A DNA stretch of 64,000 bases, taken from IMG/VR virus record IMGVR_UViG_3300037076_000045, positions 859-64,858 of that record. One strand, written 5' to 3'. The notes beneath the pieces are model-generated. The model made no database searches. It worked only from the letters and a program-made list of their open reading frames with translations, and had not been told where the DNA came from. Made by a program: the position numbers and the translations under genes. Of the stretch, positions 10,233-15,931 are shown one piece after another; position 1 is the first letter of the stretch, and the number at the start of each line of letters is the position of its first letter. This DNA is from a virus (Duplodnaviria; Caudoviricetes).

Positions 10233-10254
10233 AACAGATCCATTATAGCACAAA

Positions 10255-10292
10255 ACCGCTTGAATCAAGTTGCCATCCCTGATTCAAGCGGT
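10255..10292. terminator. 13-bp hairpin at the 3' end of the tRNA array
   Basis: ACCGCTTGAATCA...TGATTCAAGCGGT; TTTG follows on the - strand. Confidence 0.65.
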
Positions 10293-10366
10293 CTTCGCTA
10301 CTGATGAACTTCTACTGATGAATCACACGCTTACGAAGTTTCACTCCTAAGAAAATGAGTGCGCTT

Positions 10367-10412: not shown

Positions 10413-10493
10413 TGGTGGATTCGGAGGGGATTGAACCCTCATCTTTCTGGGTAAGAGCCAGATATTCTGTGTCCTATTTTGAACTACGAATCC
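10413..10493 (-). tRNA. tRNA-Lys(CUU), enlarged D-loop
   Basis: GGATTCG/CGAATCC-A-CCA; TCTGG-CTCTTAC-CCAGA; 13-nt D-loop. Confidence 0.85.
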
Positions 10494-10685
10494 GAAACTT
10501 TGTGCGTGTGTTCCTCTTCCAGCCGCCCGCATTGAGCGCAACCGACACCTGTGTAAGTGTGATGCTCTCCATACGGATGGTTAGTCGGATGGAACTTGTC
10601 TGCCGGTTCCTTAGAATTCGGCAAATCGAAACTTAGTCGATATTGATACTGAAGAGTCGAAATGGCACCATTTATAAATATTGAC

Positions 10686-11201
10686 ATGTCAATTCAAGTA
10701 TGCTCATGTGGTGTTTCTACTACCAACCCAAAATATTGCTCACGATCTTGCTGTGCAAAGTCAACTAATCGCATACCAAAGCGGAAAAAAACAAAGCTAT
10801 GTAAATCTTGTACAACTCTCATCTCAAGCAAAAACAAGTATTGCTCAATCTGCCGTCCAGAAACTAAAAATTGGGACCAATTGACGTTGAATGATGTTGC
10901 TTCAATCCCTCGATATCAAATATTCGCAAGAATCCGTCAGATTGCTAGAGCGGTCTATAAACAATCCAAACAACCCAAATGTTGCGTTGTGTGTGGATAC
11001 GACAAGCATTACGAAATTTGTCATCGAACACCAATCAGCACGTTTTCTCTAAGTACGCTAATCAGTGTCATCAATGCAATCGAGAATCTTATTTCATTGT
11101 GCCCAAACCACCATTGGGAATTCGATAACGCAAAGTTGGTAGTCCCGGTAGGAGTCGAACCTACGGCCACAAGTTTAGGAAACTTGGACTCTATCCGCTG
11201 A
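10686..11201 (+). CDS. HNH homing endonuclease
   Basis: CVVCGY...EICHR...NLISLCPNHHWEFD; TATAAATA 5 nt upstream. Confidence 0.85.
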   Translation: MSIQVCSCGVSTTNPKYCSRSCCAKSTNRIPKRKKTKLCKSCTTLISSKNKYCSICRPETKNWDQLTLNDVASIPRYQIFARIRQIARAVYKQSKQPKCCVVCGYDKHYEICHRTPISTFSLSTLISVINAIENLISLCPNHHWEFDNAKLVVPVGVEPTATSLGNLDSIR

Positions 11202-11212
11202 GTTACGGGACC
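11137..11212 (-). tRNA. tRNA-Arg(CCU)
   Basis: Cloverleaf; CAAGT-TTCCTAA-ACTTG; CCA encoded. Confidence 0.93.
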
Positions 11213-11481
11213 ACATTTTTTAATCGTTGAACTATAAGACCAGGAACTTTCACTTCAATGCCACGCTTCCATTTACTTTCATCGAACTTACCGAACCTCT
11301 CAATGTTCAGTTGGATCGTCCTTTGAAAGCCGATCTTGAAATGAAACAACGCTTCTGCTTTGTTGTCGCCTTGGGCGAGGTAATCATACTCGACACCTTC
11401 GCACACCCAAAATCTTCCATCACGGATGAACCTTACATTGGTTCTTCCCAAGCCATCGATGTAAATGTTAATCGTAGTCAT
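11203..11481 (-). CDS. HicB-like fold protein
   Basis: FWVCEGVEYDYLAQGDNKAEAL resembles the HicB N-terminal QGxTxEEA motif. Confidence 0.55.
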   Translation of the reverse strand: MTTINIYIDGLGRTNVRFIRDGRFWVCEGVEYDYLAQGDNKAEALFHFKIGFQRTIQLNIERFGKFDESKWKRGIEVKVPGLIVQRLKNVVP

Positions 11482-11486
11482 AAAAT

Positions 11487-11562
11487 TGGTAGCCCCACAA
11501 GGACTCGAACCTTGATTCTCGCTTTAGAAGAGCGAGGCCCTATCCCATTGGACGATGGGGCC
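11487..11562 (-). tRNA. tRNA-Arg(UCU)
   Basis: TCGCT-CTTCTAA-AGCGA; CCA encoded. Confidence 0.93.
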
Positions 11563-11569
11563 AAAATTT

Positions 11570-11643
11570 TGGTAGCCACCCGCAGAGTTGAACTGCGATA
11601 GCTGGCATGTCATACCAGTGCTCTACCATTGAGCTAGGCGGCT
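11570..11643 (-). tRNA. tRNA-Val(GAC)
   Basis: CTGGT-ATGACAT-GCCAG; CCA encoded. Confidence 0.88.
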
Positions 11644-11680
11644 GCGGATTCTGAACATCTTCAGAATCATAAATCGTAGC

Positions 11681-12082
11681 ATGACTTGTCAAACCTGCCA
11701 TGCTCCACTCACAGGAAAGCAAACTAAATTTTGCTCTCGACCGTGTAAAAATCAAAACTCAAATGCAAACTACAACGTGTATGTTAAACAACAAGAACGT
11801 GCTCGTCGTAGAAAGATAGGATTCGTAATGGCAATGGGTGGAAAATGCACCAAGTGCGGCTACCGAAAAAATTTAGCAGCCTTGACTTTTCACCATAACG
11901 ATCCTACCCTCAAAGAACTCCAACTAGATCGGAGAATTATGTCAAACTACAACATGGAAAGATTGATTGCAGAAGTTGCTAAATGCACGCTACTTTGCTC
12001 AAATTGCCATGCTGAACATCATAATCCTACCGAAGAATCTTGGTGGACCGAGTGGGACTTGAACCCACAACCGCCAGATTAA
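11681..12082 (+). CDS. HNH homing endonuclease
   Basis: GGKCTKCGY..ALTFHH..P...KCTLLCSNCHAEHH. Confidence 0.85.
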   Translation: MTCQTCHAPLTGKQTKFCSRPCKNQNSNANYNVYVKQQERARRRKIGFVMAMGGKCTKCGYRKNLAALTFHHNDPTLKELQLDRRIMSNYNMERLIAEVAKCTLLCSNCHAEHHNPTEESWWTEWDLNPQPPD

Positions 12083-12116
12083 GAGTCTGTTACTCTACCA
12101 ATTGAGTTACCAGTCC
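12041..12116 (-). tRNA. tRNA-Lys(CUU)
   Basis: ACAGA-CTCTTAA-TCTGG; CCA encoded. Confidence 0.92.
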
Positions 12117-12122
12117 AAAACT

Positions 12123-12302
12123 TTAGGAACCAGCTTGCTTTGCATGATGCGTCATTTGGAGCGACACTTCTGTCACTTCCTGCACCAGCTTAACTTGCGG
12201 TTCTCTCGCATTACTTCTGCAATCTTCTTCCAGGCACACATTGATGTAACCTGGGTGTTTTCGGGCGGGAGTAAATTCCTCGCCACATATTCGACACTTC
12301 AT
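12123..12302 (-). CDS. Small zinc-finger protein between tRNAs
   Basis: SD GAGG; MKCRICGEEF...VCLEEDC. Confidence 0.55.
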   Translation of the reverse strand: MKCRICGEEFTPARKHPGYINVCLEEDCRSNAREPQVKLVQEVTEVSLQMTHHAKQAGS

Positions 12303-12371
12303 TTTATTACCTCTGCCGCAACCGGCTAAATTCACGGTCAACTTCTCAGAATAGCGACAGTGTAAAAACTT

Positions 12372-12447
12372 TGGTAGACCCGGTTGGACTCGAACCAACG
12401 ATTTCCTCCGTATCAGAGAGGCGTCCTAGCCACTGAACGACGGGTCT
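12372..12447 (-). tRNA. tRNA-Ile(GAU), variant body
   Basis: CCTCT-CTGATAC-GGAGG; CCA encoded. Confidence 0.88.
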
Positions 12448-12448
12448 A

Positions 12449-12536
12449 TGGTACTCCTGAGAGGACTCGAACCTCCATTGAGCTTGACGCTCCCACGTTC
12501 GTAGCGTGGTGCCTAATCCAATTAGACTACAGGAGC
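12449..12536 (-). tRNA. Class-II tRNA with ACG (Arg) anticodon
   Basis: CCACG-CTACGAA-CGTGG followed by long V-arm GAGC-GTCAA-GCTC; A73-CCA. Confidence 0.88.
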
Positions 12537-12547
12537 ATATTGAACTT

Positions 12548-12624
12548 TGGTAGCCCCGGTAGGACTCGAACCTACAAGTCTCTGCGTTCGTAGCGCAGCA
12601 TCCTATCCATTGAACGACGGGGCC
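12548..12624 (-). tRNA. tRNA-Arg(ACG)
   Basis: CTGCG-CTACGAA-CGCAG; canonical class I. Confidence 0.93.
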
Positions 12625-12639
12625 ACAACTTAAAAAATT

Positions 12640-12716
12640 TGGTCGGCCTAGATGGAGTCGAACCATCGACCTCTGTCTTATCAGGACAGCGCTCTAGCCA
12701 ACTGAGCTACAGGCCG
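12640..12716 (-). tRNA. tRNA-Ile(GAU)
   Basis: CTGTC-CTGATAA-GACAG; canonical. Confidence 0.95.
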
Positions 12717-12745
12717 TAAAACTTGCTTGCCCTGATTGTGTATGA

Positions 12746-12822
12746 TGGTGAGTCCGGTCAGACTTGAACTGACATCCCCCAACTTAAAAGGATGGTGCTC
12801 TGCCAGATTGAGCTACAGACCC
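12746..12822 (-). tRNA. tRNA-Lys(UUU)
   Basis: CCATC-CTTTTAA-GTTGG (one U-U mismatch); CCA encoded. Confidence 0.9.
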
Positions 12823-12877
12823 ATGATTGGCGGATCTGCGATAACACCACACACAGAGAGGACACTCGAATGCGATG

Positions 12878-12928
12878 TTATCGCTTTCGTTTATCTCTCC
12901 GAATTGTAATTCGACGTGTGCGTGTCAT
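12878..12928 (-). CDS. Putative leader peptide MTRTRRITIRRDKRKR
   Basis: 16 codons, 16 nt after TATAAATA (12945-12952), directly ahead of the tRNA array. Confidence 0.55.
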   Translation of the reverse strand: MTRTRRITIRRDKRKR

Positions 12929-12953
12929 TTTCTGAACTCTTTCGTATTTATAC

Positions 12954-13010
12954 AGAGAGTGGTGTGGCGAGAAAGCCATGATTACGGGCTTGTTTTTCAC
13001 ACCACTCTCT
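12954..13010 (-). ncRNA. Long hairpin in the tRNA-operon leader
   Basis: Perfect 13-bp IR AGAGAGTGGTGTG/CACACCACTCTCT with inner AAGCC/GGCTT. Confidence 0.6.
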
Positions 13011-13024
13011 ACTTCATTAACTAC

Positions 13025-13053
13025 AGTCTAGCACGACTTCCAAATCCTGTCAA
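13025..13053 (-). promoter_or_regulatory. Sigma70-type promoter P2 of the tRNA array
   Basis: TTGACA-17-(TGC)TAGACT. Confidence 0.8.
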
Positions 13054-13065
13054 GTGCCTTTTTTT

Positions 13066-13268
13066 ATTTGACCGATGTGGTGTGCGGCACACCGGCCAAC
13101 ATTCTGAACGGGAAAACACAATTGGATCTTCAACAGGCATCCATACTCCGTTCGTAGCATGGAGACCCAATTGTTCCGGCTTGACCGCCCCGGAGTCGCA
13201 CCCCATTACCGGGTAGAGCCGATTCACGTTGACTCATTCTCTACGGTCTGATTTACCGTCAACGCTCA
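13066..13268 (-). ncRNA. Candidate ~200-nt structured ncRNA
   Basis: Four consecutive helical domains downstream of promoter P1; no convincing ORF. Confidence 0.6.
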
Positions 13269-13274
13269 ATTATC

Positions 13275-13303
13275 AATTTAGCACAACAACAAAACGTTGT
13301 CAA
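13275..13303 (-). promoter_or_regulatory. Sigma70-type promoter P1
   Basis: TTGACA-17-(TGTGC)TAAATT. Confidence 0.75.
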
Positions 13304-13486
13304 CTATTGCCCGATCCACTTCACTGCATCGGCCCGCCCGCAAAACACTTCCCAGGCGTCTTTCAGGCGGCGCATACAGAACCAGGAACCGTGATTGAAA
13401 GGCAATGGTCTAGCTGGAACATAGCAGCCATCAACATAGGCTGCGCTGTGATTAACCCACTTTATCAATTCTTCGATCTTGTACAT
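13304..13486 (-). CDS. Hypothetical protein
   Basis: YVPARP...RRLKDAWEVFCGRADAVKW, a small phage-type protein. Confidence 0.65.
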   Translation of the reverse strand: MYKIEELIKWVNHSAAYVDGCYVPARPLPFNHGSWFCMRRLKDAWEVFCGRADAVKWIGQ

Positions 13487-13614
13487 ATGTCAAATCCAAA
13501 AGATGAAAGGCAATCATGATTGGGCCAATCGCAAATCCCCATATACGAATCCGCCTTCCTCGTGCAGTTAGGTTCCGGCAGAACTTATCTGTCGTACCTC
13601 TGTAAAATTTTGGT

Positions 13615-14082
13615 CTATGCGATAGTATGGCTTTGATGTACTTCCACATCTTTCAATGCCCTCACTTTCCAATAGCCCACTTGATGCGCTGTTTTTCTGG
13701 TGTGACAGTTTGCACATCTAATATCACACTTATCAATTTCTGCTTTCAGTCTCGACCAAGAAGTATAATGTCGCAACATTTTACTAATCTCTTCAGATTT
13801 GTTCTCCCGATGATCGAATTGAAGTACAAGTACATCGGCTTCTCCACAATCGGCACACGGGTGCTGCATCAAATATTCGAGAACTATTTTACGATTGTGT
13901 CGCTGATTCTCCTGGAGCTTTCTTTTCTGCTGCGCTCGTCTTTCAGACCCATTTTCTTGGTAATAACTTTTACAGCGAAGTCGCCCACACAATTTACATT
14001 CCCTTCGCCAACCGGGTTTGCCGTTTTGAGCTTTATAGAATTCGTCAAGCGACTTCGGTTTATTGCATGTACTACATATCAT
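13615..14082 (-). CDS. HNH homing endonuclease
   Basis: PCADCGE...VLQFDH...KCDIRCANCHTRKT; CTAAATA 5 nt upstream. Confidence 0.88.
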   Translation of the reverse strand: MICSTCNKPKSLDEFYKAQNGKPGWRRECKLCGRLRCKSYYQENGSERRAQQKRKLQENQRHNRKIVLEYLMQHPCADCGEADVLVLQFDHRENKSEEISKMLRHYTSWSRLKAEIDKCDIRCANCHTRKTAHQVGYWKVRALKDVEVHQSHTIA

Positions 14083-14114
14083 GAACCTATTTAGAGATTC
14101 ATGATTTCCGCTTC

Positions 14115-14477
14115 TTAATCGCACATTTTAAAAATCATTTCACCAATCAAGAAGATCAGGAAGCCAAGTTGCTTGTCAGTACCGCTGGCATTCGGTTCCC
14201 GCATCATCTTTTCCTTATACTCAAAGATTTGCTTGTACAGATCACGTACAGCATTGACCTTCGCAACGCTCTCTACGTCTGTGCTCTCCGCAATGGTAGC
14301 AGCCTCGCTCGACTTGAATGCTTCGATGTTATCAAGTGTGTAGCGTACCGCACGGCGGATAAATTCAGACCTATTCAGCGATGGGATTTGTTCTTTGAGA
14401 ACTTGGTCAACCGCCGCAGTAAGAGTGGACGGAAGCCTCAATAAAATTTTGTCGTCTTGTACTTTTTCCTTGGACAC
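14115..14477 (-). CDS. Ribbon-helix-helix (CopG-like) DNA-binding protein
   Basis: KILLRLPSTL...VD...NRSEFIRRAV. Confidence 0.8.
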   Translation of the reverse strand: MSKEKVQDDKILLRLPSTLTAAVDQVLKEQIPSLNRSEFIRRAVRYTLDNIEAFKSSEAATIAESTDVESVAKVNAVRDLYKQIFEYKEKMMREPNASGTDKQLGFLIFLIGEMIFKMCD

Positions 14478-14511
14478 AAAAATACCTCTACTTGTATATA
14501 TAACAAGTAAG

Positions 14512-15117
14512 ATGCCAAAAGGAATTTATTGTAGAAAACCAACGGCGAGGTACCAAGCCATAAAATCCAACGAGTTATACTATGATGGAAGAGCTTGCAA
14601 AAACTGTGGATCTACGACAAAATATGTACACGGGCAACATTGCGTAGCTTGTAAGAAGATTGCAAATGTTCCGACTGCTCAAAAAAGACAGTATCACAAA
14701 CAATGGTGCATTAATAATCGAGATCAAGATAGACAGCATAAAACTCGTTGGCGCAATGAAAACAGAGAACAAGCAAGAGCCGCTTCTGAGGTATGGAGAA
14801 AACGACACCCGGAGAGACACTCTTTTTATCAAGGCACACGGAGAGCAAAAAAACGAAACGCTCCAGGTACCCACTCATTTGAAGAATGGAGATTGTTAGT
14901 TGAAAAATTCGGAACCATTTGCCTCTGTTGCAAAATCTCTGAACGTAATCTGATAAAAACCACCGGACGAGCGCTTACAGAAGATCACATAATCCCTTTA
15001 AGCAATCCAGCTACCACAAATGATATTACCAACATACAACCACTTTGCTTGGAATGTAACATTCGCAACTACCTATTTTACAAAAAGACTGGTTCGCAAA
15101 AAGATTTTAGATGGTAG
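14512..15117 (+). CDS. HNH homing endonuclease
   Basis: CLCC...LTEDHIIPLS...NDITNIQPLCLECN. Confidence 0.88.
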   Translation: MPKGIYCRKPTARYQAIKSNELYYDGRACKNCGSTTKYVHGQHCVACKKIANVPTAQKRQYHKQWCINNRDQDRQHKTRWRNENREQARAASEVWRKRHPERHSFYQGTRRAKKRNAPGTHSFEEWRLLVEKFGTICLCCKISERNLIKTTGRALTEDHIIPLSNPATTNDITNIQPLCLECNIRNYLFYKKTGSQKDFRW

Positions 15118-15198
15118 ACCCGGCCAGACTCGAACTGGCGACTTTCCGCTTCGGAAGCGGATGTTCTCAAGGCTTTCGCTCCACTGAACTACGGGTCC
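15112..15198 (-). tRNA. tRNA-Arg(CCG) with D-loop insertion
   Basis: TCCGC-TTCCGAA-GCGGA; 19-nt D-loop containing GC-GAAA-GC. Confidence 0.85.
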
Positions 15199-15202
15199 AA
15201 AT

Positions 15203-15835
15203 TTACAACTTTCCGGCGTAGGACGACTTACTCTTTGCGTTCTGACCAAACTTGACTGAAAACATGTCGGCATCGTGAACAATTCTAGCTTCAATAGTCT
15301 GAGGCTCAACCGGACTGCCCCATTCCTTTCGGCCATGATGCGCTAGGATTGCGTGTTCAATTCCCAACACAATTTCAGGATGCACTTCTTTGTGCTGGAT
15401 TTCCATCAGAAAAGCAGCATGACTCCCGGCCACATGACGAACCAAGTTGCGGTAGTCCGTCTTCGCAATGTAAGTCGCCGGTTGACCATACGCATCCAAG
15501 TAGATTGAATCCGGTGTTGACTTATGTCGAATTTCATACTCGTTGATCTTCATAAAGTCGTGATAGATCGCTGCCGTAACAACCACGTCTTCGTCGGCGC
15601 TGACACCGGCTGTAGCTACAGAGTTAAATGTCTTCGCCTGATTAAAAGCAAAGTCTGTAACTTCGGCTGTGTGGATGATTAGTCCACCAGGATATGCATG
15701 GTGCTCACCGGCAGATCCAACCTGAGTGAAAAATTTTGGATTGTCGATGACTTTGAAACATGCATCCTGTAGTGCCGGAATAGTCAATTCGGTCGCATAA
15801 TGCATCAATAATTCTTTGGCTTGTTTTTCGTTCAT
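15203..15835 (-). CDS. HD-domain hydrolase (YhaM-like)
   Basis: HHAYPGGLIIH, YHDFMK, ILAHHG..EWGSPV.P and HDAD motifs. Confidence 0.88.
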   Translation of the reverse strand: MNEKQAKELLMHYATELTIPALQDACFKVIDNPKFFTQVGSAGEHHAYPGGLIIHTAEVTDFAFNQAKTFNSVATAGVSADEDVVVTAAIYHDFMKINEYEIRHKSTPDSIYLDAYGQPATYIAKTDYRNLVRHVAGSHAAFLMEIQHKEVHPEIVLGIEHAILAHHGRKEWGSPVEPQTIEARIVHDADMFSVKFGQNAKSKSSYAGKL

Positions 15836-15840
15836 GAAAT

Positions 15841-15931
15841 TGGTACCCGGTCGTGGAATCGGACCACGTTCTAGTCGGTAATCTGCCGAGACCGCTTATA
15901 AGGCGGCTTGAGAACCATCCTCCCACCGGGC
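15841..15931 (-). tRNA. Class-II tRNA-Ile(UAU)-like
   Basis: GCCCGGT/ACCGGGT-A-CCA; GCCGC-CTTATAA-GCGGT; long V-arm; G8; T-loop TCCGATT. Confidence 0.8.

Follow-up and report, generated by a model that had tools for sequence, protein, structure and literature searches.

Small RNAs made within tRNA clusters are known from bacteriophage T4, whose tRNA region gives two small RNAs of unknown role (PMC3014915, PMC9697503). These RNAs, RNA C and RNA D (species 1 and 2 RNAs; NC_000866 70908-71171), are non-coding and have at least partial tRNA ancestry, with a T-arm in RNA C. They follow tRNA-Arg directly, at the 3' end of the cluster, without two flanking promoters. YrlA (Rfam RF02553), a bacterial and phage Y RNA-like RNA, is likewise a non-coding RNA that reuses tRNA-derived modules. 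In this study, we describe an element of ~200 nt, designated ncRNA1, which resembles the T4 RNAs as a small non-coding RNA of a tRNA cluster with probable partial tRNA ancestry, but which heads its cluster and is longer. Promoter-proximal structured RNAs that head a long untranslated operon, as ncRNA1 does, also include HK022 put and the boxA leaders of rRNA operons. As judged by the comparisons described below, ncRNA1 is a previously uncatalogued phage RNA with a supported fold.

The window, that is, the whole stretch of 64,000 nucleotides analysed here, is nearly all of a 64.9-kb IMG/VR virus record. Its source is, by its encoded proteins, a distant T4-type phage: the window contains a T4-type major head protein (phrog_138, E 1e-153) and a family-B DNA polymerase with at most 39% identity to cyanomyophage gp43. 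The tRNA region is on the minus strand at positions 10413-15931 (~10.4 to 15.9 kb). ARAGORN finds 11 tRNAs there, for Lys (3), Arg (4), Ile (3), and Val (1) only, and an Rfam model gives one more at 15115-15198, which is missing from the ARAGORN calls. Between the tRNAs there are four HNH endonuclease ORFs, three on the plus strand (10662-11201, 11681-12082, and 14395-15117) and one on the minus strand (13615-14124). A near-palindromic hairpin at 10245-10301 is matched on both strands by the same plastid 3'-UTR models (E 0.014-0.065, far under the gathering scores); this hairpin, at the edge of the tRNA region, is probably no more than a strong stem-loop.

On the minus strand, the main run of tRNAs has ncRNA1 at its upstream end. 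Read along this strand, the order is a 60-aa gene (13304-13486; phrog_21988), promoter P1, ncRNA1 (~200 nt), promoter P2, 200 nt more, and tRNA-Lys(UUU) at 12822. Promoter P1 (13275-13303, minus strand) consists of TTGACA, 17 bases, and TAAATT with a TG extension, matching the consensus at 10 of 12 positions, and its predicted transcription start is at ~13266-13270. The promoter scan finds it at 13303-13275, in agreement with a preliminary description of the sequence that placed the element right after this promoter. Promoter P2 (13025-13053, minus strand; TTGACA-17-TAGACT) lies 14 bases past helix P5 and forms the 3' bound of the unit. Both flanking promoters are of the sigma-70 type by sequence.

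Using the head protein as an anchor, we found 550 relatives and kept the best 80 loci. One of these best 80 of 550, L003, whose head protein is 94% identical, contains a counterpart of ncRNA1 that is matched by blastn and nhmmer (72% identity over 190 nt, E 8.6e-26). The layout is as in the window: promoter, RNA, promoter, further leader, and tRNA-Lys(UUU). A third version, identical in the two metagenome contigs L127 and L128, was found by the invariant pattern of the P2 domain, and here the 60-aa gene, a TTGACA-17-TAAATT promoter, ncRNA1, and a second promoter follow one another. The counterparts of promoter P1 are TTGACA-17-TATATT in L003 and TTGACA-17-TAAATT in L128, and promoter P2 has its counterpart at the same place in both. 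Both flanking promoters are kept in all three loci, and in each of them ncRNA1 adjoins the tRNA cluster directly on its upstream side.

Of two covariance models, R1 is based on one sequence and R2 on the three distinct sequences; both match positions 13062-13270 of the window end to end, as well as L003 and L127/L128. Over the capsid-gene loci of the best 80 of 550 relatives and eight whole related records (G001 and G004-G010, including two near-complete genomes with head proteins 84% and 68% identical), the sole real match of R1 and R2 is record G001, which is the L003 contig. The other matches have E values of ~2-10, apart from those in which hairpin P5 is echoed on the reverse strand. A 401-nt query gave no blastn match in 50,697 phage records, and the upstream 60-aa protein used as an anchor gave six pattern matches and no relatives. 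The exact 22-mer of P4 is absent from the viral contigs searched. Of the 37 loci with CGGGGCGGTCAAGCCG in viral contigs, one is real, namely, the L003 contig, and the other 36 lie in GC-rich coding DNA and match by chance; the L003 contig is also the only locus hit by a junction pattern tolerating helix changes and by the linker pattern. GTDB genomes contain no match to the P2-domain pattern; a single linker-pattern match there, in an archaeal MAG, was discarded, as it is not matched by model R1. Since these further scans lead to known loci or chance matches only, ncRNA1 appears to be single-copy and, within the collections covered, is confined to a small, narrow clade of uncultivated T4-like phages.

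Sequencing runs add a further variant. Run X6 contains both the window form and a divergent variant of ncRNA1, which differs from window positions 13176-13303 by 23 substitutions and 7 indels over 128 nt. By hand reading of the difference table, helix P1 of this variant is still paired with different letters. The middle of the variant (13062-13175) has under 80% likeness to the window and was left out of the analysis. Runs X3, X7, and X9 carry the window sequence without differences across the covered parts. Among the 21 sequencing runs listed, none is an RNA run with the locus. As far as these reads indicate, the diversity of ncRNA1 exceeds what the assembled collections show.

The fold of ncRNA1 (13067-13268, minus strand, with its ends set at the predicted start and at the foot of hairpin P5) comprises helices P1, P2/P2a, P3, P4, and P5, all given here on the minus strand. 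Helix P1 (13227-13264) is a 5' hairpin in which CGUUGAC (13258-13264) pairs with GUCAACG (13227-13233) around a variable interior. In the P2/P2a domain (13177-13221), CGGCU (13217-13221) and AGCCG (13177-13181) enclose CCCGG/CCGGG. The domain is invariant in sequence apart from an 11-nt loop segment missing from L003, and nine of the ten pairs in its helices never vary, making it the most conserved block of ncRNA1. Helix P3 (13118-13174), formed by ACAATTGGG at 13166-13174 and TCCAATTGT at 13118-13126 (ACAAUUGGG and UCCAAUUGU as RNA), encloses helix P4 and an asymmetric internal loop. Helix P4 (13140-13163) is formed by TCCATGCT at 13156-13163 and AGTATGGA at 13140-13147 (UCCAUGCU and AGUAUGGA as RNA) and is capped by the invariant 8-nt loop ACGAACGG (13148-13155). 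The single-stranded linker UUCCCGUUCAGAAUG (13100-13114), also invariant, contains CCGUUC at 13106-13111. Helix P5 (13068-13099) is a 12-bp 3' hairpin of TTGGCCGGTGTG (13088-13099) and CACATCGGTCAA (13068-13079) with the loop CCGCACAC.

The helices, the loop, and the downstream CCGTTC given in the preliminary description were all found in place on the minus strand. The exception in conservation is its CCCG-GTAA-TGGG GNRA hairpin, which is broken in L127 and mostly deleted in L003, the partner side being an 11-base insertion without counterpart in L003. The GNRA hairpin fails in two of the three sequences, all of which can instead form CCCG(G)/(C)CGGG. The 11-nt P2a-loop segment itself (13192-13204, minus strand), present in the window and L127 and absent from L003, is tRNA T-arm-like: GGTGCGACTCC agrees with GGTTCGACTCC of the phage's tRNA-Ile at 10 of 11 bases, and it may be another tRNA-derived patch.

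GAACGG in the P4 loop and CCGUUC in the linker could form a pseudoknot of six standard pairs out of six in all three sequences, every base of which is invariant. The CCGUUCA stretch has an alternative partner at the 5' end, where UGAGC could pair with GUUCA. A closing helix between the 5' end and GUUCA was rejected: it has 4-5 pairs only, and its single change (columns 6/61) is equally explained by an extension of helix P1. Downstream of helix P5, the window has an A-run, AUAAAAAAA, L127/L128 have ACUUUUC, and L003 has ACAUAGG; a U-run thus follows helix P5 in only one of the three distinct homologues. The terminator scan of the window lists no intrinsic terminator (a GC-rich hairpin with a U-run behind it) at helix P5.

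A second conserved non-coding element should be noted between promoter P2 and tRNA-Lys(UUU), at 12823-13024 of the window (minus strand), 19833-20095 of L003 (minus strand), and 425-695 of L128 (plus strand). Its invariant blocks include GTATAAATAC, ATGACACGCACA, TAAACGAAAGCGATA, and TATCGCA, and a long-range helix of GCGATAAC and GTTATCGC becomes GCGATAGC and GCTATCGC in the relatives. Rfam gives no match to it, and its pattern finds only the L003 contig in viral contigs. RNase P cleavage at the tRNA would free this element as a leader of ~200 nt. Behind the leaders, tRNA-Lys(UUU) has a length of 77 nt in the window, 76 nt in L003, and 94 nt in L127 (2544-2637) and L128 (696-789), and the greater length in the latter two suggests an insertion or an extended arm.

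The folding energy of ncRNA1 alone is not beyond chance, since 13 of 200 shuffles fold as well as the minus strand (−72.1 kcal/mol, z −1.69). For the plus strand, the energy is −57.0 kcal/mol (z −0.28), which 72 of 200 shuffles equal. The choice of the minus strand in the preliminary description proves right on account of the lower energy, and the comparative pair changes are decisive. The covariation set consists of three distinct sequences (the window, L003, and L127 = L128), all related members of one clade. In the model-fitted alignment of these three, which leans the counts towards structure, standard pairs occupy 98.6% of 142 pair cells, compared with 30-43% when the partners are slid by 1-3 columns. 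On the same alignment, both sides have changed with pairing kept in 15 of 49 pairs, and none of 500 shuffles reaches any of the five measures. These two-sided changes are found in helix P1 (four of six outer pairs and two inner pairs), helix P3 (five of nine pairs), and helix P4 (four of eight pairs, including the loop-closing pair). No pair of P2, P2a, P5, or the pseudoknot has changed on both sides; in helix P5, nine pairs are invariant, three have changed on one side (G-U to G-C or A-U), and 97.2% of the cells are paired.

RNAalifold, making its own structure prediction on the model-fitted alignment, gives the same six helices with 54 pairs, 17 of them compensatory. It fails to recover the helices from a plain MAFFT alignment because they are misaligned there. 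The P2 domain, the P4 loop, and the linker are invariant amid the drifting stems P1, P3, and P4. This pattern is that expected of an RNA recognized by a protein or held by tertiary contacts. ncRNA1 is, very probably, a selected RNA structure.

Known families do not account for this structure. The covariance models of Rfam 15 gave 29 matches in an 8-kb search at E ≤ 10, none overlapping 13066-13268, and a search of 341 nt with the laxest filters gave two, both on the plus strand and with scores of 13.8 and 12.9 bits, where 56 and 55 are the gathering scores. ARAGORN finds no tRNA or tmRNA in the region, the Rfam tRNA model has no match at E ≤ 10, and the calls that ARAGORN makes at thresholds of 60-80% disagree among the three homologues. 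Compared with a tRNA, ncRNA1 is without a cloverleaf, a T-arm, and an acceptor stem with CCA, and only an anticodon-arm segment is alike. A group I intron, including a tRNA-borne one, was rejected, as there is neither an Rfam match nor a split tRNA around ncRNA1; 6S, SRP, tmRNA, RNase P, T-box, and Y RNAs were rejected for want of matches. The YrlA model has no match in 13066-13268, its only matches being weak (E 0.77 and 7) and falling on genuine tRNAs in other parts of the cluster, and the T-arm/D-arm module of YrlA is absent from ncRNA1. Models R1 and R2 do not match the T4 tRNA region. In Smith-Waterman comparisons of ncRNA1 with the T4 RNAs, 61-292 of 300 shuffles reach the score, and there is no similarity in sequence or structure between them. 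Homology of the P2 domain to T4 RNA D through CUACC(C)GGUAA was also considered and rejected, the likeness being within the shuffle range. No description of such an RNA was found in the literature searched. The earlier assignment as an unassigned phage ncRNA therefore stands on this lack of an Rfam match, the compensatory changes in P1, P3, and P4, the conserved promoter, and a 68-aa ORF that is not kept at the protein level among the homologues, as described later.

The relation of helix P4 to a tRNA of the same phage should be noted. The closest tRNA relative of the P4 segment, located outside ncRNA1, is an 88-nt tRNA with the anticodon ACG (Arg) and a long variable arm (12449-12536, minus strand). 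Among bacterial tRNAs, long variable arms are characteristic of those for Leu, Ser, and Tyr. All 88 bases of this tRNA are identical in L127. The 10-mer GCTACGAACG is common to ncRNA1 and both ACG tRNAs of the window, as the preliminary description reported. Its significance on its own does not hold, because a 10-mer in common with at least one of the 12 window tRNAs is also found in 2344 of 20000 dinucleotide shuffles and the counterpart in L003 is different, GCAACGAACG. The likeness is wider than the 10-mer. The 5' strand of P4, the loop, and two further bases are shared with the anticodon arm of the 88-nt tRNA-Arg(ACG), with identities of 15/15 in L127, 13/14 in the window, and 12/13 in L003, and the similarity runs a few bases into the D-arm side. 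The score of the local alignment to this tRNA, the best-scoring of the 12 window tRNAs, is reached by 0 (L127), 9 (window), and 8 (L003) of 3000 shuffles. In addition, a 10-mer and an 8-mer of the L003 RNA recur colinearly in the tRNA-Arg(ACG) of L003, in its variable and T region, a match that 6 of 1000 shuffles reach; a chain-of-exact-matches statistic is weak for the window and L127, whose values are reached by 30-88 of 1000 shuffles. This wider likeness suggests that part of the P3-P4 arm most likely descended from, or exchanged sequence with, a tRNA-Arg(ACG) gene. The 15-base identity in L127, reached by none of 3000 shuffles, keeps a tRNA-Arg-related origin or role in play.

The segment is not, however, folded as in the tRNA. 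The base at the position of U33 forms a U-A pair in ncRNA1, which is flipped to A-U in L003 (columns 133/142). As the U before ACG is paired, the loop is the 8-base ACGAACGG, in which ACGAACG is invariant in all three sequences. The 3' strand of P4 is unrelated to the tRNA arm, and the eight base pairs are in another register. An anticodon stem-loop mimic, with the 7-base loop CUACGAA, an unpaired U33, and a tRNA-like stem, is found in none of the three sequences. The likeness to an Arg-ACG anticodon loop noted in the preliminary description is thus a real relation, as the L127 identity indicates, and the loop mimicry falls with the paired U33 and the 8-base loop.

We tentatively read ncRNA1 as a stand-alone, trans-acting, and partly tRNA-derived small RNA, giving this reading somewhat less than an even chance. 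Host RNA polymerase would transcribe it from its own strong sigma-70-type promoter, promoter P1, at the head of the tRNA cluster. In the folded molecule, helix P1 is fixed in shape and free in sequence, P2/P2a forms an invariant bulged hairpin, and P3-P4 forms a long arm capped by ACGAACGG, the anticodon arm of tRNA-Arg(ACG) most likely having been re-registered into an 8-bp stem with an 8-base loop. The CCGUUC of the linker probably docks onto this loop as a pseudoknot. Promoter P2 is conserved beyond ncRNA1, so that the tRNAs would be independent of promoter P1, and because promoter P2 alone can serve the tRNAs, promoter P1 and ncRNA1 look like a gene of their own. Since the U-run is absent after helix P5 in two of the three homologues, the 3' end would come from processing of a read-through transcript. 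ncRNA1 may be cut from the long tRNA-operon transcript or may end near helix P5, which would act as a stable protective 3' hairpin after processing. The T4 RNAs are likewise made by processing of a read-through transcript. We infer a discrete species of ~200 nt, which would be a small RNA that accumulates stably in the manner of T4 RNA C and RNA D, and may act in trans with a protein bound through the invariant P2 domain and the loop.

The same absence of a U-run in two of the three homologues implies that transcripts from promoter P1 probably continue into the tRNAs, as would be expected just as well if ncRNA1 were a cis-acting 5' leader of the tRNA operon, and from the missing terminator we infer co-transcription of ncRNA1 with the tRNAs. 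The fold of such a leader would act on its own transcript only: it might shield the 5' end, direct processing by RNase E or RNase P, or render the polymerase resistant to Rho or hairpin-induced termination over the long untranslated operon. The position of ncRNA1 directly upstream of the tRNA cluster in all three loci agrees with this reading, as does the second conserved structured stretch between promoter P2 and tRNA-Lys, structured leaders seeming to be the rule here. However, the strong conserved promoter P2 only 14 bases past helix P5 serves the tRNAs without promoter P1, and the invariant P2 domain and loop resemble a recognition surface more than a stabilizer. No boxA-like or other known antitermination family is matched, and the described antitermination leaders, which bear only on this cis-acting reading, differ from ncRNA1 also in that a second promoter follows ncRNA1 at once. 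We regard a cis-acting leader as the main rival reading, possible but rather unlikely. The invariance of ACGAACG in the loop of all three sequences, together with the 15-base identity in L127, would also suit a decoy, which is a special case of the stand-alone trans-acting RNA. Here, the phage's own arginine-tRNA anticodon arm would have been recast as a rigid, pseudoknot-locked hairpin that offers the tRNA-Arg(ACG) anticodon loop to an anticodon nuclease, such as one of a defence system, or to the A34 deaminase TadA, titrating a tRNA-Arg-directed host enzyme and sparing or competing with the real tRNA. Lys and Arg tRNAs are classic anticodon-nuclease targets, and the tRNA set of this phage covers only Lys, Arg, Ile, and Val. 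Against the decoy, "U33" is paired and its U-A pair flips to A-U in L003, the loop has eight bases instead of seven, the equivalents of C39 and G40 lack a partner or take part in the putative pseudoknot, no relation to the tRNA is seen in the 3' strand of the stem, and the 10-mer alone is within chance. The decoy is accordingly an improbable version, and, if true, it would be the first RNA-only counter-measure of its kind, beside the spare Lys, Arg, and Ile tRNAs.

The compact fold, the invariant internal-loop domain, the likely pseudoknot, and the alternative pairing of CCGUUCA with the 5' end are features that a new class of ligand-sensing riboswitch or self-cleaving ribozyme would also have. 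Rfam, however, gives no match to such a family, the one change in the 5'-end pairing fits the extension of helix P1 as well, and regulation lacks a target, for ncRNA1 is followed by a promoter and not by a conserved terminator or ribosome-binding site. We consider this reading very unlikely; the switch suggested in the preliminary description finds no support, given a U-run after helix P5 in only one of the three distinct homologues. A decaying tRNA pseudogene or a recombination scar without a function of its own could explain the patches identical to the resident tRNA-Arg genes and the colinear matches in L003, and the four HNH endonuclease genes of the tRNA region could drive gene conversion. 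Yet the compensatory changes keep helices that are not tRNA helices, ncRNA1 has its own conserved promoter, neither ARAGORN nor the Rfam model finds a tRNA, and the relaxed ARAGORN calls differ between homologues, which leaves a mere remnant with a very small probability. The last reading is a small protein gene, the 68-aa ORF with a GTG start at 13021-13227. Its frame is open from VNRLYPVM to the end of the aligned stretch in all three homologues, but past ~20 residues the homologues are translated in different frames, into unrelated sequences, the indels between homologues (11, 5, 4, and 1 nt) are not multiples of three, the ORF crosses promoter P2, and PHROGs has no family for it. The nucleotide changes are compensatory in the helices. 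A peptide gene here is hardly credible.

The stand-alone, trans-acting small RNA thus stays our tentative reading. Immediate use of the finding is limited by the narrow distribution of ncRNA1 and the lack of a cultured host. Beside the species 1 and 2 RNAs of T4, ncRNA1 would be a second, unrelated example of its kind with a clearer anatomy, namely, a promoter of its own, helices supported by covariation, an invariant bulged hairpin, and a tRNA-related hairpin. It suggests that parts of tRNA genes are reused by phages to build new folded RNAs, and tRNA-Arg(ACG) may provide a concrete lead to the interaction of such RNAs.
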